Below the pieces are notes generated by a model. That model was not told the origin of the DNA. It saw nothing but the letters and a program-made list of their open reading frames with translations, and searched no databases. From positions 12,611 through 76,610 of the forward strand of contig DAOTXM010000492.1 in the NCBI GenBank assembly GCA_034435215.1: 64,000 nucleotides of DNA, read 5' to 3'. This document shows, in pieces, positions 4,944 to 49,320 of the stretch (positions are counted from its first letter, which is position 1; every line of letters starts with the position of its first letter). The position numbers and the translations under genes are program-made. The DNA comes from Anaerolineales bacterium (GTDB taxonomy: Bacteria > Chloroflexota > Anaerolineae > Anaerolineales > Villigracilaceae).

Positions 4944-6733
4944 TCGAACCCGGGAATGAGGTCGGCAAAGTAATACGCATCGCTGGACCCGTTGTGAGGG
5001 CCGAGGGTCTGGAAAACGTCCGGCTATACGATGTCGTACATGTCGGCGAGATGGGACTCATTGGCGAGGTGATCCGTCTTTCCGAAGGCATCACCACGAT
5101 CCAGGTGTACGAAGATACATCGGGCATTCGTGTCGGCGAACCGGTTCACGGTACGGGGTTTCCCCTGGTCGCCCTGTTGGGACCAGGTCTGTTGGGACAG
5201 GTCTATGATGGGTTACAGAGACCACTCGAACTCCTGGCCAGGGCAAGCGGCGAGTTTATCCAACGCGGCGTGCAGGCCTCACCGTTGCCCGAAGAGAAAC
5301 GCTGGAAATTTACGCCAAGCGTTGCAGTGGGCGCAATGGTGGGACCCGGTGATATTCTGGGCGTAGCACCAGAATCGCGGACAATCGAACATCGTATTAT
5401 GGTTCCACCTCGCCAGCGCGGGCGGGTGGTCAGCATCCGTGAGGGTGAGGTCAACGTCAATGAAACGGTGGCGATCATCGAGTCCGGGGATGAAGCGAGA
5501 AGAAAAAATGTGGAGGTCACGCTCGTTCAGCGCTGGCCTGTGCGCCAGCCACGTCCCTGCCAGGCGCGTCTCGCACCGCGTGAACCGTTGTTGACAGGGA
5601 CACGCATCATCGATGCTTTTTTCCCGGTGGCGAAAGGCGGCTCGGCCATCATCCCAGGCGGTTTCGGGACGGGGAAAACCGTGACCGAACATAGTCTCGC
5701 GCGCTGGGCGGATGCGGATGTGGTGGTTTATGTGGGATGCGGCGAGCGCGGCAACGAGATGACCGAGGTGCTGGAGGAGTTCCCGAAACTGGAAGATCCG
5801 CGTACTGGTGCGCCGCTGATGGAACGCACGGCGCTGATTGCCAATACTTCGAACATGCCGGTGGCTGCGCGGGAGGCCAGCATTTATACCGGCATTACGA
5901 TTGCGGAGTACTACCGCGATATGGGCTACGATGTGCTAATGCTGGCCGATTCCACGTCGCGCTGGGGAGAAGCCCTGCGCGAGATTTCGGGGCGCTTGGA
6001 GGAGATGCCCGGCGAAGAGGGTTACCCGGCGTACCTGGCCGCGCGCCTGGCGGAATTTTACGAACGCTCCGGGCGGGTCATTTGTTTGGGGAATCACGGC
6101 GCAAATACCCAAGGTCGCATAGGTTCCGTGTCGGTGGTTGGGGCAGTGTCGCCTCCTGGCGGCGACTTCTCGGAACCCGTGACCCAAAACTCGATGCGTG
6201 TGGCCAGCACCTTTTGGGCCTTGGATTACGATCTTTCTCGCCGCCGTCATTTCCCGGCGATCAACTGGACGGATAGTTATTCGCTCTACAATTTTCATGA
6301 TTGGTTCGAACGCGAAGTGGGGACCGATTGGGATGAGTTATCGAAAGAAGCCATGGCGCTGTTGCAACGGGAGGTGGAACTGCTCGAGATCGTCCAACTG
6401 GTCGGCCCCGATGCACTGGCTGTACCCGAACGTGCCGTGCTGGCAATCGCGCGCATGTTGCGGGAAGACTTTCTCCAGCAATCGGCTTATGGTGATGTGG
6501 ACCGCTACTGCTCGATCCGCAAGGCTTACTGGATGCTCAAGACGATCATGGAGTTCTATCATCACACGCAGGCTGCTTTGGAAGCGAAGATCCCGTTGGA
6601 ACGCATCACGGCGTTGCCGGTCGCTTCGGATATTGCACGGATGAAGGAAATCCTGGTGGACTCCGCCGAGAAGGAAATACGCGCCATCATGGACCGCGTG
6701 CAGTTCAGTTTTGCAGACCTGGGAGTTGGCTGA
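4940..6733 (+). CDS. atpA: V/A-type ATP synthase catalytic subunit A
   Basis: 597 aa with Walker A GGFGTGKT, the A-subunit-specific insertion, and GERGNEM / [18 protein letters not shown] motifs. Confidence 0.98.
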
Positions 6734-6734
6734 G

Positions 6735-8159
6735 ATGCTCAAGACGCTGCCACTGCCTCGCCTGCTGACCACCGAATACCGGACGGTCTCCCAGATCAAA
6801 GGTCCGCTGGTCTTCGTCGAACGCATTGCGGGCGTGGCGTACAACGAGATCGTGGAGATCATCGGCCCGGATGGCAATGTGCGTCTCGGACAGGTCATGG
6901 AAGTGGATCAGCAGCGCTGCATGGTTCGCATCTTTCTCGGGACCTCCGGTCTGGATCTCGAGACAACGCGAGTGCGCTTCACCGGGGATGTGGCCCGTCT
7001 TGGGGTGTCGCTCTCCATGCTGGGGCGCGTCCTGAATGGTTCCGGTCAGCCGATCGATGGGGGCCCGCCCATCATTCCAGAGCGCTCACTCGACATCAAC
7101 GGGCTGCCGATCAACCCATCGATGCGGACCCACCCGAGCGAGTTCATCCAAACGGGCGTCTCGGCCATAGATGGTCTCAATACCCTGACGCGTGGGCAGA
7201 AGCTCCCCATCTTCTCCGGCGCGGGTTTACCGGCGAACGAACTGGCCGCACAGATTGCGTCGCAGGCGCGCGTGGTTGGCGGCGAGGAGGGGGGGCGCAC
7301 GGCTGGTCGCGGTAGCGAACCGTTTGCAGTGGTCTTCGCTGCGATTGGGATCACACAACGCGAGACATCCTTCTTCATGGATCAATTCCGCGCCAGTGAT
7401 GCAATGGACCGCACGGTGTTGTTCGTCAACCGCGCTGACGATCCGTCCATCGAACGCCTGCTTACCCCGCGCGCGGCGCTGACGGCGGCTGAATATCTGG
7501 CATTTACGCATCACCGTCACGTGCTGGTCATCCTGACCGACATGACGAATTATTGCGAGGCGTTACGTGAGATCGCTGCGGCCAGCGAGGAAGTGCCGGG
7601 CAGGCGCGGTTATCCGGGATACATGTATTCAGACCTGGCAAGTTTGTACGAGCGCTCCGGGCGCATCCGCGGCAATCCTGGCTCGGTGACACAACTGGTC
7701 ATCCTGACCATGCCCGATGACGATATCACGCATCCCATCCCCGACCTGACCGGCTACATCACCGAGGGACAGATCGTAATGAGCCGTGATTTACATCGCA
7801 AGGGCATCTATCCTCCCATTGATGTACTGCCGTCGCTCTCAAGGTTGATGAACGATGGGATCGGTAGAGGCAAGACCCGCGCCGATCATCGCTCTGTCGC
7901 CGACCAGCTTTATGCTTTTTACGCCGAAGGCCGCGACCTGCGTCGTCTGGTGGCAATCATCGGCGAAGCGGCGCTGTCCGCAGAAGATCGCCGTGTGTTG
8001 GATTTCGCCAAACGCTTCGAAGAGACATTCATCGGGCAGGGAACGGTCAACCGTGAAGTCAGTGATACCCTTAATCGCGCCTGGGAATTACTGGCTCCCA
8101 TGCCCGCCGAATCGCTCAAACGGATTCCGAAGGAGTTCATCGAGCAATATCATAGATAA
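6735..8159 (+). CDS. atpB: V/A-type ATP synthase subunit B
   Basis: About 474 aa with [25 protein letters not shown] and [14 protein letters not shown] motifs. ATG 6735 is preferred because it lies just after the atpA stop. Track start is 6711. Confidence 0.97.
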
Positions 8160-39251: not shown

Positions 39252-39629
39252 ATGATGTCTCGCTTCATTTTTGTACGCAACCTGAACCAACCGGACCTGA
39301 CGCCAGCGCGTGTCAAATATTGCGACTCCTTCTTGTGCCGCCTGCGCGGATTGATGTTCCGGCAGCGCCTCGACCGGGACGATGGCCTGCTTCTGGTCCA
39401 GGGGCGACGCGACAGCCGGATCGACTCAGCCATCCACATGCTGTTCGTCCCGTTCGACCTGAATGTGGTCTGGATCGATGCCAGTCTGACGGTTGTGGAC
39501 AAAGTCATCGCCAAAGCCTGGCGGCCGGCCTACGTTCCAGTCAGACCCGCCTGCTATATACTCGAAATCCACCCGGAGCGCTGGGAGGACTATCAAATCG
39601 GGGATAAAGTGGTATTCCAGGATGTTTAA
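39252..39629 (+). CDS. DUF192-family protein
   Basis: 125 aa with LCRLRGLMFRQ, IHMLFVPFDLNVVWID and YILEI, matching the DUF192 pattern. Confidence 0.75.
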   Translation: MMSRFIFVRNLNQPDLTPARVKYCDSFLCRLRGLMFRQRLDRDDGLLLVQGRRDSRIDSAIHMLFVPFDLNVVWIDASLTVVDKVIAKAWRPAYVPVRPACYILEIHPERWEDYQIGDKVVFQDV

Positions 39630-41037
39630 ACGTTTTATCCCGACCATTGCCCTTATCATTATCTTGTTCTTATTTTCCCACCCTGCATCCGCGCAGACAG
39701 CGGAAGGGCCGATCTATATCGTGCAATCCGGCGATACGTTGTCTTTGATCTCCGCTCGCTTCAACGTCGACCTGGCAGAGCTGATGAACGCCAACAACAT
39801 CAGCGATCCCAACCTGCTTTCCGCTGGGCAGCAACTGGTCATTCCCGGCCTGGAGGGGATCAGCGGCGTACTGGTAACCGAGTTCGTGCAATTCGGCGAT
39901 TCCTTTCGCAGCATCAGCCGCCGTGCACAAATTGGGGAACCCACCCTGCGTAAGCTCAACCGGCTGGTCAGCCCGACTGAGCTGTACGTGGGCGTCAGCC
40001 TGATCGTACCGCAACAAACGGGGGAGAATCGACTGACCGCGCGTATCACGCCTTCCAACGGTGAATCGCTGCTCGAACTGGCTGTCAAGAATAACACCGA
40101 TCCCTGGACACTGACCCACATCAACAGATTGAGCGGCACCTGGGATGCACTTCCTGGCGACGTGCTGTATGTGACTGGCAGTGTATCTGAAACGGTCGCC
40201 AGCGGTCTCCCGGCTGTTTTCAAAGATGCAAAAGCCAGTCCCCTGCCCCTCAAACAAGGCGGGACGACCGTCATCCGCGTGCAGGTGCCGGAGGGAGTAA
40301 CCGTCAGTGGCATGCTGGTGGATCATGCCCTGCATTTCTTCCCGGACGGTGAAAGTGCCCCTCAGGGGGATGGCAGCCAGGTTGCGTTGCAGGGCGTACA
40401 TGCCCTGCTCGAGCCGGGTCCCTACCCCCTGCGTCTGGAAGCGACTTTACCCGATGGCAGCAAACAATCTTTCGAGCAAATGGTGCTGGTAACGACCGGA
40501 AATTACCAACGGGAAGACCTATACGTCGAATCCAGCACGATCGACCCCGCCGTGACAGAACCGGAAAACGAACAAATCCTGGGGTTGACAGCCAATGCCA
40601 ATCCCGAAAAATTCTGGAACGGTGTTTTCGGCTCCCCAGCGGTCTACCCGGATTGCTTTACGTCAAGGTACGGAACCCGACGGACTTATTATGGTGTCAA
40701 TACAAACGTCGAAATCCAGGGATTCCACACCGGCCTGGATTTCTGTGGTGGCGAAGGCCTGCAGATTACAAGTCCCGCGCCGGGGATCGTGGTATTTGCC
40801 GGTCCGTTGGCCGTGCGCGGGAACGCCACCGTAATCGACCATGGCTGGGGTGTATACAGCGGTTTCTGGCACCAATCGCAAATCGACGTTCAGGTTGGAG
40901 AGCGGGTCGAAGGTGGTCAGGTGATTGGCCTGGTTGGCGGGACGGGACGCGTCACCGGGGCGCACCTGCACTGGGAAGTGTGGGTCAACGGCGTGCAGGT
41001 CAATCCGCTGGATTGGCTGCAACAGGCATATCCCTGA
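39622..41037 (+). CDS. Secreted LysM-repeat M23 peptidase
   Basis: ATG 39622 gives the signal peptide MFKRFIPTIALIIILFLFSHPASA. LysM-like YIVQSGDTLSLISARF. C-terminal M23 motifs HTGLDF and GAHLHWEV. Confidence 0.9.
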   Translation: MFKRFIPTIALIIILFLFSHPASAQTAEGPIYIVQSGDTLSLISARFNVDLAELMNANNISDPNLLSAGQQLVIPGLEGISGVLVTEFVQFGDSFRSISRRAQIGEPTLRKLNRLVSPTELYVGVSLIVPQQTGENRLTARITPSNGESLLELAVKNNTDPWTLTHINRLSGTWDALPGDVLYVTGSVSETVASGLPAVFKDAKASPLPLKQGGTTVIRVQVPEGVTVSGMLVDHALHFFPDGESAPQGDGSQVALQGVHALLEPGPYPLRLEATLPDGSKQSFEQMVLVTTGNYQREDLYVESSTIDPAVTEPENEQILGLTANANPEKFWNGVFGSPAVYPDCFTSRYGTRRTYYGVNTNVEIQGFHTGLDFCGGEGLQITSPAPGIVVFAGPLAVRGNATVIDHGWGVYSGFWHQSQIDVQVGERVEGGQVIGLVGGTGRVTGAHLHWEVWVNGVQVNPLDWLQQAYP

Positions 41038-41121: not shown

Positions 41122-43521
41122 CTACTTGTTCACCCAGAATCCCAGGTGGTTAGAGACAGCCGATTCGTTTCCGGGGATATTGCCTTCGATGGGTGAGTTC
41201 AACACGAACGGTCCTCCCAACGCCCCTTCGATGACCATGGCGGAAGAACCACCGCCATCCAGGTTGATTCCAGTGTAAGCGCCCAGCGAGATCAGGAAAT
41301 CGGCCATGTCCGGGAAGGTCGCGCCTTCGCTATAACCCGGCTGGCGTCCGTCGATCACCACCAGGAACAGCCAGCGTCCATTCTGGTTGAGCCCGGCCGC
41401 TGTGCGCGGCTCGACAGATTGGCTTTCTAGATTGGCAATTCGTTTGCCCTTATCCACCAGCATCCGGTCGCCGGAAACAGCATTGTAAATGGCACCCAGT
41501 GGTGTGTTGAAAGAGACCTCATTATTCTTATTGATATACATGATTGGCCTGCCCTCCCATTGCTGGGAGTACACCGTACCGCGGGAGGCTGCATAGCTGT
41601 TGACCTTGACAGGTTCGCCGCCATTGGGACAATACTGCTGTGGGTTATACGTATCCTGGTCGAGATACTTGAAGCCATCGCCATTGACCGCCACTTGCAA
41701 GCCGAAGTCCTGTAAGAATTTGGAAGTTTTGCGCGTGCAAATCAAACCGCTGGCATGGCTGGGTGGCGTCACCAGGCATTTCAGGCCGGTGGTACGCATA
41801 TCGATTGCCAGAACGTGGGCGACCATTCTGCGTGGCGTCTTCATCTCCTTCCGGAAATACGTGACGCCAGTAAAAATCCTTTGCGTCAATTGTTCAGGCG
41901 CTGTGGTTCCCAAGTCAGTCAGATAGGAAACAGCACACCAACCCACCAAGCCGTCGAAGCGTTGGACGCGGACCCAGCTCCCGTCCTCGTTGGATTCCAG
42001 CGCCACGACAATCTGGCCCTGCGCCAGGGAACCAACCTTGTTGCTGGAAGTGCTCGGCCCCTCGCGCACGTTCAAGGTCGCGACCTTGACCTGGTACCAG
42101 TTTTTCGGAGGGGTGACGGGGGGAGGCGGTTCCCCGCCACCAGGTGGCGGCGTGGGAGCAGTCGTCAACACCAGGTAGCTGGCAAAACACCAGCCGGTCA
42201 GCCCGTCCGATTCGCGGCGAATTTTGATCCAACTCCCGTCGCTGTTCTTTTCGAGCGCCTTGACAACCTCATTGAAAGCCAATGAGCCGATCTTGGCCTC
42301 GCTTGTGCTGGGACCCTGGCGAACGTTCAAAACCGAGGCTGTGACGCGATACCATTCCACCACGCTGGGCGGTTCCCCTGTATCGGGTGGCGCGGTCGTC
42401 TCTTGCAGGTAAGCGGCATAACACCAGCCAGTCAGCCCGTCTGAGGGCCGATAGATTTTGATCCAACTGTTGGCGACAGCGAATTCGAGCGCCTTGACCA
42501 CTTCACCTTGCGCCAGGGTCCCAACATTATCGTAGCTCGTGCTGGGACCAGAACGCACGTTCAAGGCAGTCGTGGTAACGCGGTACCATTTTGGTTCCGT
42601 GGTGGGTGGTTCCTCCGTATCCGGCGGTGTGGGGCTTTCGATTTTTATCAGGTGTGTCTTGTATATCCAGCCAGTCGTTCCATCAGTCCTTTTGACCTGC
42701 ATCCAGCTTTCATCGACGGTCGTATCGAGCAGTTCCAGGACTTCATCCTGCTGTAACGCACCAATCACGGTTTCGTCCACGCCCGGGCTGGTGCGTATGC
42801 TCAACTCGACACGGTATTTCCCTTCTACCTGACCGCCACCCGGAGGCGGTTCACCGGGTTCGGCAATCCCAAAACGTTGACGGAAGGCTACTGCATCGCC
42901 GTTGAAGTAATTTAAGTCGATGCCCTTGCTTTCCACACCATAGAGCTTGCCATCGCCAACTTCCGTGAACTGCCAGAACAACCATTCCTTCGGCCCCCAC
43001 GGTTTGGGGATGCTGGGTTCCGCCACGCCGTAGTTGGCAATCCACAAGGGATATTGGTGGAAATATTCCAAGCTCTGGGCTTCACTGGTCGCATTGGGAG
43101 CATTGTCCCGCCAGTAATAGAAGGCGGTATAAATCGCAATTTCCTTCTTGTCGACCAGCTGCTTGAGCCGCTCCAGAAAATCGTACCAGCTACGCCAACC
43201 CTTGTACGTGCCTCCATAAGCATCCTCGAAATCTGCAAACAGCGGCAATTCCCCCAAATCCCCATTCAACAAATCGACCCACAGTTCGGCCTGTCGTTTG
43301 GGGTCGGCGCGGCTGTCATAGAACCAATAGGTGCCACGCGGGAGTCCAGCATCCTTGGCCGCAACCCAATTATGCTTGAAATCCCTGTCGGGCCACAGGT
43401 TCTGTCCGGCGCGGATAATGACAAAATCCGCGGCCTTTTTCATTTTAGCAAAATCAATACGCTCCGGAGTCGTCGGTTCGTCTTGATAAAAACTTATATC
43501 AGGACCGATTGCATTTCCCAT
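41122..43521 (-). CDS. GH25 muramidase - 4x SH3b - phosphodiester glycosidase (NAGPA-like) multidomain protein
   Basis: 799 aa. N-terminal GPDISFYQ...FVIIRAG...GTYWFY (GH25). Four about-70-aa repeats (W/K)Y(R/Q)V...LNVR.GPSTS...G.L....V.ALE....SW.K(I/V).R.DG.TGW with Pro-rich linkers. C-terminal AVNGDGF...INLDGGGSSAMV (phosphodiester glycosidase family). No N-terminal signal peptide visible. Confidence 0.8.
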   Translation of the reverse strand: MGNAIGPDISFYQDEPTTPERIDFAKMKKAADFVIIRAGQNLWPDRDFKHNWVAAKDAGLPRGTYWFYDSRADPKRQAELWVDLLNGDLGELPLFADFEDAYGGTYKGWRSWYDFLERLKQLVDKKEIAIYTAFYYWRDNAPNATSEAQSLEYFHQYPLWIANYGVAEPSIPKPWGPKEWLFWQFTEVGDGKLYGVESKGIDLNYFNGDAVAFRQRFGIAEPGEPPPGGGQVEGKYRVELSIRTSPGVDETVIGALQQDEVLELLDTTVDESWMQVKRTDGTTGWIYKTHLIKIESPTPPDTEEPPTTEPKWYRVTTTALNVRSGPSTSYDNVGTLAQGEVVKALEFAVANSWIKIYRPSDGLTGWCYAAYLQETTAPPDTGEPPSVVEWYRVTASVLNVRQGPSTSEAKIGSLAFNEVVKALEKNSDGSWIKIRRESDGLTGWCFASYLVLTTAPTPPPGGGEPPPPVTPPKNWYQVKVATLNVREGPSTSSNKVGSLAQGQIVVALESNEDGSWVRVQRFDGLVGWCAVSYLTDLGTTAPEQLTQRIFTGVTYFRKEMKTPRRMVAHVLAIDMRTTGLKCLVTPPSHASGLICTRKTSKFLQDFGLQVAVNGDGFKYLDQDTYNPQQYCPNGGEPVKVNSYAASRGTVYSQQWEGRPIMYINKNNEVSFNTPLGAIYNAVSGDRMLVDKGKRIANLESQSVEPRTAAGLNQNGRWLFLVVIDGRQPGYSEGATFPDMADFLISLGAYTGINLDGGGSSAMVIEGALGGPFVLNSPIEGNIPGNESAVSNHLGFWVNK

Positions 43522-45078: not shown

Positions 45079-45108
45079 TTGACTAAAGAACATTTGTTCT
45101 AATATAAT
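45079..45108 (+). promoter_or_regulatory. Near-consensus sigma-70 promoter with embedded LexA-type SOS box
   Basis: TTGACT (45079..45084) - 18 nt - TATAAT (45103..45108). The spacer contains AGAAC-ATTT-GTTCT (45087..45100), a perfect GAAC-N4-GTTC palindrome. ATG of the next gene is at 45116. Confidence 0.7.
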
Positions 45109-45115
45109 TCTAAAC

Positions 45116-45538
45116 ATGTTCCTGCTCCCATCCCGCCTGCGCAAGCTCCTGCAAAGGGCCAAGGGGTCGGATTCGCGCACCTTCAGCGCGGACCAGGAGT
45201 TGTTGGCCGCCATTCAAGAAGCTGCGCAAGCACAGGGCCGCAGCGAAGAAGAAATCTGGATGGACTTTGCCAGGGCCGGCCGGGAACAGTACCGGCAGAG
45301 TGGCGCGCTGGAAGCCCGCTGGGATTCGCTCTCGGAACGCGAGCAGGAGGTCACGGCACTGGCCTGCATGGGGTACAGGAACTACGAAATCGCCAAAACC
45401 CTGGGCATCTCCCACGAAACGGTCAAGACTCATTTGCAGAATGTCTTCATCAAATTCGATATCCACAGCCGCAAGGAACTGCGCCTGGCGCTCAGGGATT
45501 GGCGCTTCGATGAGTGGTGGGAGGATCGCAGCCCATAA
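45116..45538 (+). CDS. LuxR/GerE-type HTH regulator
   Basis: 140 aa. C-terminal LSEREQEVTALACMGYRNYEIAKTLGISHETVKTHLQNVFIKFDIHSRKEL is a canonical GerE HTH. N-terminal 70 aa not recognised. Confidence 0.85.
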   Translation: MFLLPSRLRKLLQRAKGSDSRTFSADQELLAAIQEAAQAQGRSEEEIWMDFARAGREQYRQSGALEARWDSLSEREQEVTALACMGYRNYEIAKTLGISHETVKTHLQNVFIKFDIHSRKELRLALRDWRFDEWWEDRSP

Positions 45539-45612
45539 GCAGCTATAGGGGGTGAAATTGCTCCGCCCCCACCCCTGCCTCCCCCAACGGCCTACCCCGA
45601 AAATCCCCCGCA

Positions 45613-45639
45613 CAATCCCCTGGCAGGGGATTGTTTTTT
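45613..45639 (+). terminator. Intrinsic terminator after the LuxR-type gene
   Basis: CAATCCCC-tggca-GGGGATTG followed by TTTTTT. Confidence 0.8.
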
Positions 45640-45665
45640 CATGCGTCCAACTTTATGCTGAGAAT

Positions 45666-46193
45666 ATGAACAAATTTTCTATATTACAACCCGGTCGTTG
45701 GACGCTGGCCCCTTTGCCGCGACATGAGCAACGGGAACAGGTGCTGGCTTGCATCGCAACCCTGGCGCTGGAAGGACCGGTCCTAGTTCTGGACGGCGGC
45801 GTGCTTTTCAATGTCTACAGGGTCGTGATGGCAGCCCACGGCCAGACGCGCCTCCTGAACCGCATCCGCTTCGCGCGCGCCTTCACCTGTTACCAGATAG
45901 TCGCCCTGCTCGAGCGTACGCCCGCCGAAGAGTTTTTCGTAGTCATTCTGGATTTGCTGGCGACTTTCCAGGATGAGAACGTACCCGCGGGCGAGCGCCT
46001 GCGCCTGTTGAAAACCTGCCTGCCGCACTTAACCCGCTTGAGCCGCCCACGCGGAGCGCTGGTTAGCGTGGGGCCGATTGCCAACATGCCGCCTGAATCC
46101 CGACCCCTGTTCCAGCTTCTTGAACGGGAAGCCGCGCAAGTGGTTGGATGGCAAACGCCCGCGCTCCCCGAGGGGCCTGCCAGACTCTTTTGA
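45666..46193 (+). CDS. RecA/Rad51-fold protein lacking a Walker A loop (ImuA/SulA-like)
   Basis: 175 aa from ATG 45666. VLVLDGGVLFNVYRV, RIRFARAFTCYQIVALLE and FFVVILDLLATFQDE...ERLRLLKTCLPHLTRLSR parallel RecA/Rad51 strands and the Walker B region, but no GxxxxGK(T/S) is present. Confidence 0.55.
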   Translation: MNKFSILQPGRWTLAPLPRHEQREQVLACIATLALEGPVLVLDGGVLFNVYRVVMAAHGQTRLLNRIRFARAFTCYQIVALLERTPAEEFFVVILDLLATFQDENVPAGERLRLLKTCLPHLTRLSRPRGALVSVGPIANMPPESRPLFQLLEREAAQVVGWQTPALPEGPARLF

Positions 46194-46194
46194 A

Positions 46195-46461
46195 ATGGGC
46201 CGCAATCTTCCCTCCATCACACAGGTCTTCCAGGAAGACAAAGAGTATCTTGTCCGCTTCCGCCGCCTGCTGCCCCGGCACGAGCACTGGATCATCGACG
46301 AGCTGCTGGCTTTCGCCCACCGGCACATCCCCGCGGTTGCTTATGCCGGGCATCCCCTGCCGTTCGTCATGTTCCTGCTGGCCATGCTGGTCGAACAACA
46401 CAAGCAACTCAAACGGCTGGAAGACGCGCTACATGCCATAAAAGAAGGGCGAAATGGGTGA
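46195..46461 (+). CDS. Hypothetical 88-aa protein, translationally coupled on both sides
   Basis: ATG lies 1 nt after the upstream TGA. Its stop overlaps the PolB start by 8 nt. No recognisable motif. Confidence 0.5.
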   Translation: MGRNLPSITQVFQEDKEYLVRFRRLLPRHEHWIIDELLAFAHRHIPAVAYAGHPLPFVMFLLAMLVEQHKQLKRLEDALHAIKEGRNG

Positions 46462-48787
46462 TTACACCGGCTGGCTGCTGGACCTGTACACCCATCCGCG
46501 TGACGGCCTGGTGCTCTGGCTGCTGTGCGACGACACCCGCCGGCGCCGCTTCCGGCAGGATTTCCCGGTCACGTTCTACGCCGCCGGCCCCGACCAGCGC
46601 CTGCGCGCGCTGTGGAAATTTCTGCGCGACCAGCCTGTGCAGGTCGAACTCTCCCGCGAAGAGCGGCGGGACTTGTTCTGCGGTCCGGTCACAGTGCTGG
46701 CGGCGCGCGTCCGGAATCCGCACCAACAGCCTGGCCTGTTCTGGCAGGTTGCGCGCCGGTTCCCGGATTTGAACTTTTACAACGCCGATATCCCCATCCA
46801 TCTGCACCATGCCGCGGCCTATGGCACCTTCCCGCTGGCGCGCTGCCGTACGCAAACAGACGGGCAGGGGAACATCGTTCACGTCGAAATGCTGGACTCG
46901 CCCTGGAAGCTGCACTCCCGCCCACCGCCGTTGCGCACTCTGACGGTCGAACCCGATGCCGATCCCTTCCACGCTTCGCCCAGGCGCCTGGTCCTGCGTA
47001 CCGCGCTCGGGCATTTTTCCATCCCCCTGGAACCCCGCGCGGACCTGCTGCGGACGTTACAGGAACGCCTCCTGCGCTACGACCCTGATCTGCTGTTGAC
47101 TGCCTGGGGTGACACCTGGCTGCTGCCAAAGTTATTGGAATGGGCCGAACAGCATAAAATGCGCCTGCCTCTCAACCGCGAACTGGGCGCAGGCGTGGTC
47201 CGGCGCGCCGAGCGCTCCTATTTTGCCTACGGGCAGGTTATCTATCGGGGACAGCAGGTCAAGCTGTTTGGGCGCTACCATATCGATATCCACAACGCAG
47301 TCATGTACCGCGATTACGGCCTGGACGGCATTTGGGAACTGGCGCGCGTCACCTCCCTGCCTGTGCAAACCGTGGCGCGTGTCTCACCGGGGACGGGCAT
47401 CTCCGCCATGCAGATTGTCACCGCCTTGCGGGAGAACATCCTCGTTCCCTGGCACAAGCAGGAACCAGAAGCGCTGCGCTCCGCGGCCGGGCAGTCCCGC
47501 ACGGACCTGGGCGGCCTGGTTGCCCAGCCGCCGGTCGGCCTGCACCGCGATGTGGCGGAGATCGATTTCATCTCCATGTATCCCAGTATCATGCGCCACT
47601 TCAACATCTCGCCGGAATTGGTGGGGGTGCCGGGCAATGAACCTGGCTTGGTCCCCAAGACGCTGGCGCCCCTGCTGGACAAGCGCGTTGCCCTCAAGCG
47701 GGCTCTCATGACGCTGCCAAAGGACGACCCCAACTACGTGCGCTTCAAGGCCTGTGCTTCCGCGCACAAGTGGCTGCTGGTCACCTGCTTCGGTTACCTG
47801 GGATACAAGAACGCCCGCTTCGGGCGCATCGAGGCGCATGAAGCGGTCACCGCCTTGGGGCGCGAAGTCCTTTTGCAGGCCAAGGAAGTCGCGGAAGGCA
47901 TGGGTTTCACGGTGCTGCATATGTACGTGGACGGCCTTTGGATCAAGAAAGAAGGCTGCAAAACGGTCAAGGACTTCGAGGCTTTGCTGCTCTCGATCCA
48001 CGAGCGGACAGGTCTCCCCATTGCGCTGGATGGCGTCTTCCGCTGGATCGCCTTCCTGCCATCCAGGCAGGATGCGCGCCTCTCGGTCGCCAATCGCTAT
48101 TTCGGTGTCCTCCAGGATGGCTCGACCAAGGAGCGTGGCATCGAACTGCGCCGCCAGGATACGCCGCCCTTCGTGGCGAAGGTACAGAGAAAAATACTGA
48201 ATATCCTGGCGCGGGCGGAGGATGCACGCGATTTGCCCTTTTATCTCCCCGAGATCCGGACGCTCGTGAACGAAGGGTTGGATGCTTTACGGCGCGGGGG
48301 GATTCCTTTGGAAGAACTCATCGTCCGCCAGCGCCTGAGCCGCGAACTGGACGCGTATCGCATGCCTTCGCCCGCCGCCCGCGCCGCCGCGCAATTGAGG
48401 GAAATCGGCAGGAATTTGCGGCCAGGGCAATCGGTGCGTTTGCTGTACATACGCGGTGAACCGAATGTCCGCGCCTGGGATTTGCCCACAGCGCCCGATC
48501 CGGCAGAGATCGACCTGGCCTGTTATCGGAAATTATTGTTAGAAGCGGTACAGGCGATTCTAGAACCGATACAGGAAAGTAAGAATCTTTTCCCTTATCA
48601 AATTCCACTTCCAAACCTGGAGGAGAATCCTTTGGTTGAGTTCCCTAGCGTAGATTTGTCATTGCGAGCCGGTCTTTGGCGAAGCAATCTCCTTGGGATA
48701 AGGGAAACCCCGGCAAAAGGGAGATTGCTTCAGGAAAACCACTCTCGTAATGACACCCTTTTGGTAGATAGCATTAGCGTACGATGA
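46454..48787 (+). CDS. Family-B DNA polymerase, divergent (eroded exonuclease motifs, atypical motif C)
   Basis: 777 aa. Motif A DFISMYPSIM, motif B-like KWLLVTCFGYLGY, motif C position VLHMYVDGLWI, KxY-like ANRYFG, GIELRRQD. The last about 45 aa are encoded by a palindromic repeat (48658..48754). Confidence 0.85.
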   Translation: MGDYTGWLLDLYTHPRDGLVLWLLCDDTRRRRFRQDFPVTFYAAGPDQRLRALWKFLRDQPVQVELSREERRDLFCGPVTVLAARVRNPHQQPGLFWQVARRFPDLNFYNADIPIHLHHAAAYGTFPLARCRTQTDGQGNIVHVEMLDSPWKLHSRPPPLRTLTVEPDADPFHASPRRLVLRTALGHFSIPLEPRADLLRTLQERLLRYDPDLLLTAWGDTWLLPKLLEWAEQHKMRLPLNRELGAGVVRRAERSYFAYGQVIYRGQQVKLFGRYHIDIHNAVMYRDYGLDGIWELARVTSLPVQTVARVSPGTGISAMQIVTALRENILVPWHKQEPEALRSAAGQSRTDLGGLVAQPPVGLHRDVAEIDFISMYPSIMRHFNISPELVGVPGNEPGLVPKTLAPLLDKRVALKRALMTLPKDDPNYVRFKACASAHKWLLVTCFGYLGYKNARFGRIEAHEAVTALGREVLLQAKEVAEGMGFTVLHMYVDGLWIKKEGCKTVKDFEALLLSIHERTGLPIALDGVFRWIAFLPSRQDARLSVANRYFGVLQDGSTKERGIELRRQDTPPFVAKVQRKILNILARAEDARDLPFYLPEIRTLVNEGLDALRRGGIPLEELIVRQRLSRELDAYRMPSPAARAAAQLREIGRNLRPGQSVRLLYIRGEPNVRAWDLPTAPDPAEIDLACYRKLLLEAVQAILEPIQESKNLFPYQIPLPNLEENPLVEFPSVDLSLRAGLWRSNLLGIRETPAKGRLLQENHSRNDTLLVDSISVR
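48658..48754. repeat. Palindromic repeat, copy c (inside the 3' end of the PolB ORF)
   Basis: GTCATTGCGAG..CGAAGCAATCTCC...GGAGATTGCTTC..CTCGTAATGAC. Confidence 0.8.
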
Positions 48788-49320
48788 ACAGCCAGCAAAA
48801 ACCAAACAAGTCCAGGGTTTTCGTCATCCACGGCCGGGATGAAGGGATGCGCCGCGCGCTCTTCGATTTCTTGCGTTCCATCGATTTGAAGCCCATCGAG
48901 TGGAACGAAGCCGTTGCGCTGACCGGAAAACCGTCTCCATTTGTGGGCGAAATCCTGGATGCGGCCATGCAGTATGCACAGGCCATTCTCGTACTCTTTA
49001 CCGGTGACGACCAGGCGCGGCTGAGGGATGAATTCCTGTCGTGCAATGATCCCGCTTATGAAAGGGAGACCACTCCACAGTCCAGGCCGAACGTGATCTT
49101 CGAAGCCGGTCTGGCCTTGGGGAAATATCCTGAGCGCACTATCCTCGTCCAGGTTGGAAATCTCAGACCGTTCAGCGATATTGCCGGCCGGTATCTGATC
49201 CGGCTGAAGAATACTTCCAAGTCCAGGCAGGAGCTGGCGTTGCGCCTGCGACTTGCGGGCTGCGAAGTGGATCTCTCTGGGACAGACTGGCATGATGCCG
49301 GGACGTTTCCGGTGAAATAA
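48784..49320 (+). CDS. TIR-like nucleotide-binding domain protein (COG4271 / CAP12-Pycsar-TIR type)
   Basis: 178 aa with RVFVIHGRDEG...FL...LKPIEW...ILVLFTGDD...RPNVIFEAGLALGKYPERTILV...PFSDIAGRY, matching the pattern of stand-alone bacterial TIR-like proteins. ATGA overlap with the PolB stop. Confidence 0.75.
   Translation: MNSQQKPNKSRVFVIHGRDEGMRRALFDFLRSIDLKPIEWNEAVALTGKPSPFVGEILDAAMQYAQAILVLFTGDDQARLRDEFLSCNDPAYERETTPQSRPNVIFEAGLALGKYPERTILVQVGNLRPFSDIAGRYLIRLKNTSKSRQELALRLRLAGCEVDLSGTDWHDAGTFPVK

Follow-up and report, generated by a model that had tools for sequence, protein, structure and literature searches.

A probable PolB2-type mutasome operon behind a predicted LexA box in an Anaerolineales bacterium

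Described PolB2 systems and the Anaerolineales locus

The features of the PolB2 group of family B DNA polymerases (PolBs) were described in 2008, 2014, 2020 and 2025. A 64,000-nucleotide (nt) stretch from an Anaerolineales bacterium (Chloroflexota; contig DAOTXM010000492.1 of assembly GCA_034435215.1, positions 12,611 to 76,610), here called the window, contains an open reading frame (ORF), polB2, that is read here, at a rough probability of 0.85, as encoding the catalytic subunit of a bacterial PolB2 (‘G2’) mutasome. Its odd motifs are the already known signature published for PolB2/G2 and do not represent a new kind of polymerase. An ‘inactivated’ archaeal PolB clade, with a few bacterial homologues included, was reported to keep only the distal Asp of YGDTD and to have a disrupted Exo I (Rogozin et al., 2008; PMC2527604). 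The bacterial subclade was later named G2 and found nested inside archaeal B2, with one motif C Asp, a D(K/R) motif, a missing Exo III and an Exo I described for B2/G2 as ‘not conserved’ (Kazlauskas et al., 2020; PMC7544198). An operon analysis then produced a modelled ‘mutasome’ of PolB2, the inactivated RadA homologue iRadA and three copies of the small, helical protein PPB2, in which the MGRT arm of PPB2 is inserted between PolB2 and iRadA and the region before D(K/R) is folded against iRadA in the manner of a Rad51 oligomerisation motif (Timinskas et al., 2025; PMC11791011). The order iRadA-PPB2-PolB2 is the sole one reported for bacteria, and in the supplementary table of that study Chloroflexota and Anaerolineae sequences are entered under the triad ‘YVD’ and operon type 1a (iRadA-PPB2-PolB2), with iRadA bearing a clamp motif (PMC11791011). 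Bellilinea, Ornatilinea, Longilinea and Pelolinea are among the operon-bearing Anaerolineae of this dataset. Such Anaerolineae sequences are already included in the published trees (PMC11791011, PMC7544198).

Biochemical knowledge of the group comes from Dpo2, the PolB2 of Sulfolobus islandicus and S. solfataricus, which is a robust polymerase devoid of 3'-5' exonuclease activity and, once purified, efficiently extends mismatched or lesion-opposed termini (PMC8764526). Dpo2 has the same motif C and Exo II changes as the PolB2 of the window, the PolC motif of PolB2 contains an invariant His, and the same activity is predicted by these authors for bacterial G2 (PMC8764526). Dpo2 is also the sole damage-inducible polymerase of S. 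islandicus (PMC7390963) and, in work as cited by PMC8764526, the only polymerase gene essential for damage-induced mutagenesis in that species.

The window locus resembles archaeal PolB2/Dpo2 and G2 in keeping only the distal motif C Asp and the invariant His, in the loss of the Exo II Asp, in a B2-type motif B (KW[IL]LV..FGY.GY.N..FG.IE) and in the Asp of D(K/R). It also shares the operon with an inactivated RadA, a ~90-amino-acid (aa) MGR(T) protein and a clamp motif on iRadA, as well as a predicted tie to damage regulation. Unlike the published description of PolB2, the window has Leu after D351, a PPB2 arm reading MGRN and an Exo I that keeps E-P-D; these departures are minor. Sulfolobus Dpo2 has a much less complete N-terminal and exonuclease half, and in place of the Orc1-2 control of archaeal PolB2 there is a predicted LexA box, often accompanied in related loci by a GerE-type gene, with a TIR-like gene appended in the window.

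Among other polymerase systems, eukaryotic Pol zeta (Rev3-Rev7-Pol31-Pol32) is likewise a B-family, multi-subunit translesion extender with a dead exonuclease, an analogy drawn in the literature (PMC11791011) and independently in the first-pass annotation of this DNA, which was made from the letters alone. Its accessory subunits, however, are unrelated, and it lacks a RadA-like partner. Pol zeta also keeps both motif C aspartates. Escherichia coli Pol II (polB) resembles the window enzyme in being bacterial, B-family and SOS-regulated and in its overall fold (template modelling (TM) score ~0.58), but it works as a single subunit and retains both the DTD motif and a complete DEDDy exonuclease; the similarity of the window PolB2 to Pol II reaches E 1e-10, against 3e-34 for archaeal PolB. 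The ImuA-ImuB-DnaE2 system is a LexA-controlled cassette of a RecA-like protein without ATPase motifs, an accessory protein and an error-prone polymerase. The window cassette shows the same combination of predicted LexA box, RecA-like partner without ATPase motifs, accessory protein and polymerase, although the ImuA-ImuB-DnaE2 polymerase is the C-family DnaE2 and its inactive member the Y-family-like ImuB, whereas in the window the B-family protein is the probable catalyst. Like UmuD'2C-RecA, the Pol V mutasome of E. coli and a translesion polymerase of several subunits induced in the SOS response, the PolB2 system would bind a RecA/Rad51-family protein and the clamp, and the N-terminal arm of its small subunit would lie close to the active site (PMC11791011); in Pol V, by contrast, the catalytic subunit is Y-family and the RecA is active and shared with recombination.

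The polymerase gene and its motifs

46454..48787, + strand: PolB2 (probable bacterial G2 member), catalytic subunit, 777 aa; D371, K439, H489/Y491/D493, E166-P-D168, L223, D351

The ORF exists as annotated, DNA_pol_B is the sole Pfam match to its product, and the motif strings quoted in the first-pass annotation all lie where they had been reported: LTVEPDAD at residues 163-170, TAWGDTWLLPKL at 216-227, DFISMYPSIM at 371-380, KWLLVTCFGYLGY at 439-451, HMYVDGLW at 489-496 and ANRYFG at 546-551. What that annotation missed is that the protein belongs to a named, published group, PolB2/G2, and that its gene closes the core of an iRadA-PPB2-PolB2 operon headed by a predicted LexA box. The two top curated NCBIfam models, NF004416 (E 9e-120) and NF004418 (2e-86), are both named ‘type B DNA-directed DNA polymerase’; the archaeal ‘DNA polymerase I’ models (1.6e-37) and Pol II (7.7e-18) are far weaker.

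Across the block from motif B to motif C, the window protein is identical to S. solfataricus PolB2 at 34/62 positions and to Haloferax PolB2 at 34/61 (55-56%), compared with 23/62 (37%) for the PolB3 structure 5mdn, while the whole of residues 292-498 matches S. solfataricus PolB2 (33% identity) about as well as PolB3 (30%). With the S. solfataricus PolB2 fragment, BLASTP (E 8e-34) places D351 on D253 of ‘DK’ and HMYVDGL on HGIIDSL, and the alignment with Haloferax PolB2 (E 3e-28) extends into the exonuclease domain. The archaeal PolB2 fragments used for comparison were taken from the supplement of PMC11791011.

The register of the motifs was checked against the solved archaeal PolBs 5mdn, 4fm2 and 5h12, using first the sequence alone and then a profile of 24 sequences. 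Motif A reads DFISMYPS, its Asp being D371. Motif B retains K439, with V443 for the canonical Asn and F446 for the Tyr. In motif C, H489-M-Y491-V-D493-G is in register with YGDTDS, so that the first Asp is replaced by Tyr and the second retained; H489 is the invariant His of the PolB2 PolC motif. The KxY position is N547-R-Y549, its Lys replaced.

In the exonuclease half, W-G219-D220-T-W222-L223-L-P-K-L is in register with NGDsFDlPYL at Exo II, where the catalytic Asp has become Leu, and V165-E166-P167-D168 is in register with F-D-I-E at Exo I. The first-pass annotation had the catalytic residues of both elements lost. This holds for Exo II; at Exo I the acidic pair is transposed around a Pro (D to E and E to D) and not absent. 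No Exo III YxxxD could be placed in the profile alignment with the archaeal PolBs. An ungapped extension puts R274...D278 in that region, where the predicted model has a strand and not the start of a helix. The same alignment shows neither intact DxE, FD and YxxxD residues nor two motif C aspartates in register, the arrangement by which the annotation would have recognised an ordinary Pol II-like enzyme.

An AlphaFold2 model of the protein has a complete PolB fold (mean predicted local distance difference test score (pLDDT) 73.8), and its structural matches are 5mdn (TM 0.62), KOD (0.61) and E. coli Pol II (0.58-0.59). The matches listed are canonical PolBs only, at 17-21% identity, with no PolB2 structure among them. 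The C-terminal tail (709-777) is unconserved and predicted to be disordered. The loop at residues 312-342 (window 47387-47479), just ahead of D351, has a pLDDT below 50; in view of the published complex model, such low confidence is consistent with a segment that takes on order only once the complex forms.

Conservation and relatives

Conservation was counted over 84 homologous loci, the window and 83 related ones. The single motif C Asp noticed in the first-pass annotation is a fixed trait, with Y491 and D493 present in 84/84, as are D371, K439 and N547, the residue in place of the KxY Lys. L223 at Exo II is kept in 82/84 (Ile in the remaining two) and H489 in 81/84, and D351, in the loop ahead of motif A, is present in 83/84. 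Because these states are conserved across the 84 homologues, the substitutions are under selection and are not sequencing noise. At Exo I (residues 166-168, window 46949-46957), E166 occurs in 69/84, P167 in 79/84 and D168 in 67/84, and the conserved E-P-D might have gained a function other than proofreading. No covariation of the PPB2 N-terminus with the residue after D351 was found when it was looked for across loci.

More than 4,800 database clusters match PolB2, and those with names are Anaerolineales or Chloroflexota. A scan of species-representative genomes with the clade-specific peptide patterns AHKWLLVT and CFGYLGYK, which sampled Chloroflexota-type loci only, confirmed relatives in at least 556 species-level genomes, making the bacterial PolB2 branch very common in Anaerolineae. 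The best 80 of the 556 carry labels that are nearly all Chloroflexota-type (Anaerolineae, Anaerolineales, Chloroflexota, ‘Chloroflexia’). Three metagenome-assembled genomes (MAGs) among the scan loci are labelled otherwise (Syntrophothermus sp., Bacteroidota, Gammaproteobacteria) and are possibly mis-binned. Two MAGs gave two distinct loci each (L044 and L066; L011 and L032), and some genomes may hold two copies. Literature searches on ‘DUF8156’, the domain recorded for PPB2 homologues, and on PolB2 in Chloroflexi returned nothing usable.

Partner genes and operon organisation

45666..46193, + strand: iRadA, inactivated RadA/Rad51 homologue, 175 aa; recognised by profile homology; C-terminus ...EGPARLF
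46195..46461, + strand: PPB2 (arCOG07300 / DUF8156), 88 aa; N-terminal arm MGRNLPSITQ

Two genes precede polB2 in the same orientation, iRadA and PPB2 being 1 nt apart and the PPB2 frame overlapping the polB2 start by 8 nt. This order holds in most of the 83 related loci, many of the misses being contig ends. Homologues of iRadA were found in 70/84 loci and of PPB2 in 77/84. In three loci (L016, L017 and L021, with polB2 at ~4998-7289), a LexA box lies ~50 nt upstream of polB2 and neither iRadA nor PPB2 is detectable in the 5 kb upstream; in these loci the system may occur in a stand-alone or split form.

A profile of 43 iRadA homologues matches Pyrococcus furiosus RadA at E 1.3e-7, and also Rad51, Rad51D and DMC1. 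The alignment with RadA begins after the Walker A strand and covers aRAF/aRAF and the Walker B-like LvLDlL/lIvDSL. No Walker A P-loop (GxxxxGK[ST]) occurs in the 175-aa protein, and the N-terminal domain is missing too. Judged by its sequence, the C-terminus ...EGPARLF resembles a beta-clamp-binding motif; elsewhere the C-termini are mostly [QP]..(R/A/S)LF or ..SLL.

PPB2 begins with MGRT in most loci, with MGRN in the window and L001, and with MGNV or MGSV in one subclade; the Sulfolobus protein starts MGRTQPSYT (PMC11791011 supplement). Although the neighbouring-gene tables record PF26485 DUF8156 for its homologues, searches of the window iRadA and PPB2 against Pfam (E up to 10) and NCBIfam (E up to 1) gave no match, DUF8156 included.

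Promoter and regulatory elements

45079..45108, + strand: promoter-like TTGACT-18 nt-TATAAT (promoter scan, 11/12 matches), with the LexA box in its spacer
45087-45100, + strand: predicted LexA (SOS) box AGAACATTTGTTCT, GAACN4GTTC match at 45088-45099
45116..45538, + strand: GerE/LuxR-type helix-turn-helix protein, 140 aa (Pfam GerE 1.8e-15; NCBIfam LuxR-type regulators only)
45612..45634, + strand: terminator-like hairpin between the GerE gene and iRadA, 10-bp stem and 3-nt loop, then a T-run
45654..45659, + strand: -10-like TATGCT, 6 nt before the iRadA ATG (TAnnnT alignment); putative promoter without an SOS box

Upstream of the cassette lies a candidate SOS promoter. The sequence GAAC-N4-GTTC is what we take to be the LexA site of Gram-positives and Chloroflexi; a literature search for the source paper on the Dehalococcoides site did not retrieve it. 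There are 64 such sites in the 840 kb of the 83 loci and the window, most of them ~21-60 nt upstream of the first cassette gene, which is GerE if present and otherwise iRadA, or polB2 itself in three loci. This position matches the published enrichment of lexA near bacterial polB2 (PMC11791011), and by sequence the cassette would be induced by DNA damage via LexA. The other two matches in the window (22422 and 42551) were set aside: they lie inside long ORFs, and three matches fall within what chance would give for the window.

The GerE-type gene is an optional member of the cassette, with a homologue standing upstream of iRadA, first behind the SOS box, in 43/84 loci. GerE often turns up in the published table of neighbouring genes, 127 times in operon group 1a, but is not discussed (PMC11791011 Suppl. 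Table S1). In the window its mRNA is probably leaderless, since the -10 element ends 7 nt before the ATG.

Between the GerE-type gene and iRadA, a hairpin comparable to that of the window, with a T-rich tail and at the same distance to the iRadA ATG, occurs in 24/57 loci, compared with 7% of shuffled controls, and its stem takes 19 different sequences. RNAalifold on the intergenic alignment gave no consensus structure, the loop lengths putting the hairpins out of register, and hairpins were then searched per sequence with the shuffled control. Rfam gave no match in the window or the leader region. In alignment A3 (34 sequences), a TAnnnT hexamer stands at a constant distance from the iRadA ATG; its A never varies, and each of its two T is conserved to 90% or more. 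TATGCT is a probable separate, leaderless promoter of iRadA. Palindromes like GGGTTAACCC cluster ~76 nt upstream of the iRadA ATG in 19/68 loci. Both GerE and iRadA start 6-7 nt past -10-like hexamers, with no Shine-Dalgarno sequence at the usual distance. To judge by such sequences, the cassette seems to use leaderless mRNAs throughout the clade.

Taken together, the hairpin, the SOS-free iRadA promoter and the palindrome make a two-step arrangement possible, if doubtful, for about half of the Anaerolineae loci: LexA would control a GerE-type activator, which in turn would act on a mutasome transcribed from its own iRadA promoter without an SOS box. Were this cascade to operate, error-prone synthesis would be delayed relative to the rest of the SOS response.

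Proposed activity

Extended from the archaeal orthologues and published models to the window, the pathway would begin with DNA damage, LexA cleavage and de-repression of the promoter at 45079-45108. The translationally coupled genes would then yield iRadA, PPB2 and PolB2, which may assemble into the published predicted 1:1:3 complex and dock on the beta sliding clamp through the ...RLF of the iRadA C-terminus. PolB2 would polymerise with D371 and D493 as metal ligands and without proofreading, mainly extending mismatched or lesion-opposed primer ends and so giving rise to damage-induced mutagenesis. The metal-coordinating residue in B-family enzymes is the second motif C Asp, the one that is invariant here.

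The first-pass annotation asked whether the protein polymerises at all or serves as a scaffold as ImuB does, and the evidence goes the other way. By homology, the window PolB2 is most likely a working translesion polymerase, because its Dpo2 orthologue is an active, exonuclease-free extender of mismatched and lesion-opposed ends. A catalytically dead scaffold, comparable to ImuB or to the C-terminal half of Pol epsilon, which would recruit another polymerase to the clamp via iRadA, is an unlikely alternative. It accords with the original 2008 view of the family (PMC2527604), with the substitutions in motif C (first Asp), KxY (Lys) and motif B (Asn and Tyr), and with the fact that no assay of any bacterial member was found in the literature. 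A working active site, on the other hand, predicts what is seen at the metal ligands D371 and D493 and at K439, invariant in 84/84, and Sulfolobus Dpo2 is a robust polymerase with the same substitutions (PMC8764526).

Several points nonetheless tell against a PolB2 mutasome with translesion activity. The literature search found no assay of a bacterial PolB2, and activity is extrapolated from crenarchaeal enzymes of ~33% identity. Asn takes the place of the KxY Lys in all homologues (N547, 84/84), and motif B has Val and Phe for its canonical Asn and Tyr. The residue after D351, where D(K/R) expects K or R, is Leu in the window; of 74 loci, 33 have Q there, 25 M and 5 L, with K/R in only 9. Placement within PolB2 rests on motif signatures, pairwise scores and the published trees. 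As for the partners, the window PPB2 could not be aligned by BLASTP with its Sulfolobus counterpart (the N-terminal motif aside), and the bacterial iRadA profile, compared by hhalign with Sulfolobus iRadA, reached a probability of 0.3%; with no similarity to the crenarchaeal proteins detected, both are recognised by RadA homology, the N-terminal motif and synteny. Finally, direct LexA control of polB2 is uncertain, since in the window the SOS box stands ahead of the GerE gene and a terminator-like hairpin lies between that gene and iRadA.

With its full-length exonuclease-like domain, the compact operon of the window lends itself to tests of the predicted PolB2-iRadA-PPB2-clamp mutasome. It may also show how SOS mutagenesis is timed in Chloroflexota, perhaps through a GerE-type intermediate regulator.

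Neighbouring genes and other readings

48784..49320, + strand: TIR-like protein, 178 aa (Pfam PF10137 3e-28), with an ATGA overlap with the polB2 stop

The gene downstream of polB2 bears on a further reading, in which PolB2 belongs to a mobile element, as the PolB of a self-replicating element, or to an anti-phage defence system with an effector partner. The TIR-like protein (PF10137) matches the PADLOC candidate system PDC-S35 at 3.6e-20, in its C-terminal half only, and its gene overlaps the polB2 stop codon, which suggests this reading; the G+C content of 0.63 at 46-48 kb, against ~0.48-0.60 elsewhere in the window, also leans this way. As a conserved partner, however, the TIR-like gene was rejected, for it stands beside PolB2 in only 2/84 loci, the window and the 87%-identical L001 (8348-8884), and with this distribution it is a recent lineage-specific addition to the operon. 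PADLOC gave no defence match for iRadA or PPB2, and PolB2 matched only a long ‘homing endonuclease’ model. The flanking genes vary by locus and are housekeeping, no integrase, terminal repeats or Cas1 lie nearby, and the cassette is chromosomal, in contigs of 1.6-3 Mb, all of which makes a mobile or defensive origin very improbable.

Least probable of all is an ordinary proofreading Pol II-like repair polymerase with motifs mis-aligned by eye, which would suit the overall PolB fold, the well-predicted N-terminal and exonuclease domain and the conserved acidic E166, D168 and D278 near the Exo I and Exo III positions, but which is at odds with Leu for the Exo II Asp in 82/84 (with Ile in two), a first motif C Asp replaced by Tyr in 84/84, the lack of a YxxxD, Pol II models that score far below the two top ‘type B DNA-directed DNA polymerase’ models, and the place of the window gene in an iRadA-PPB2 operon, Pol II being a single-subunit polymerase.

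Upstream of the cassette, the window encodes two cell-wall hydrolases, a LysM-peptidase M23 protein (39493-41037, + strand) and a large GH25 muramidase / SH3 / NAGPA protein (41122-43521, - strand), which are unrelated to the polymerase cassette.

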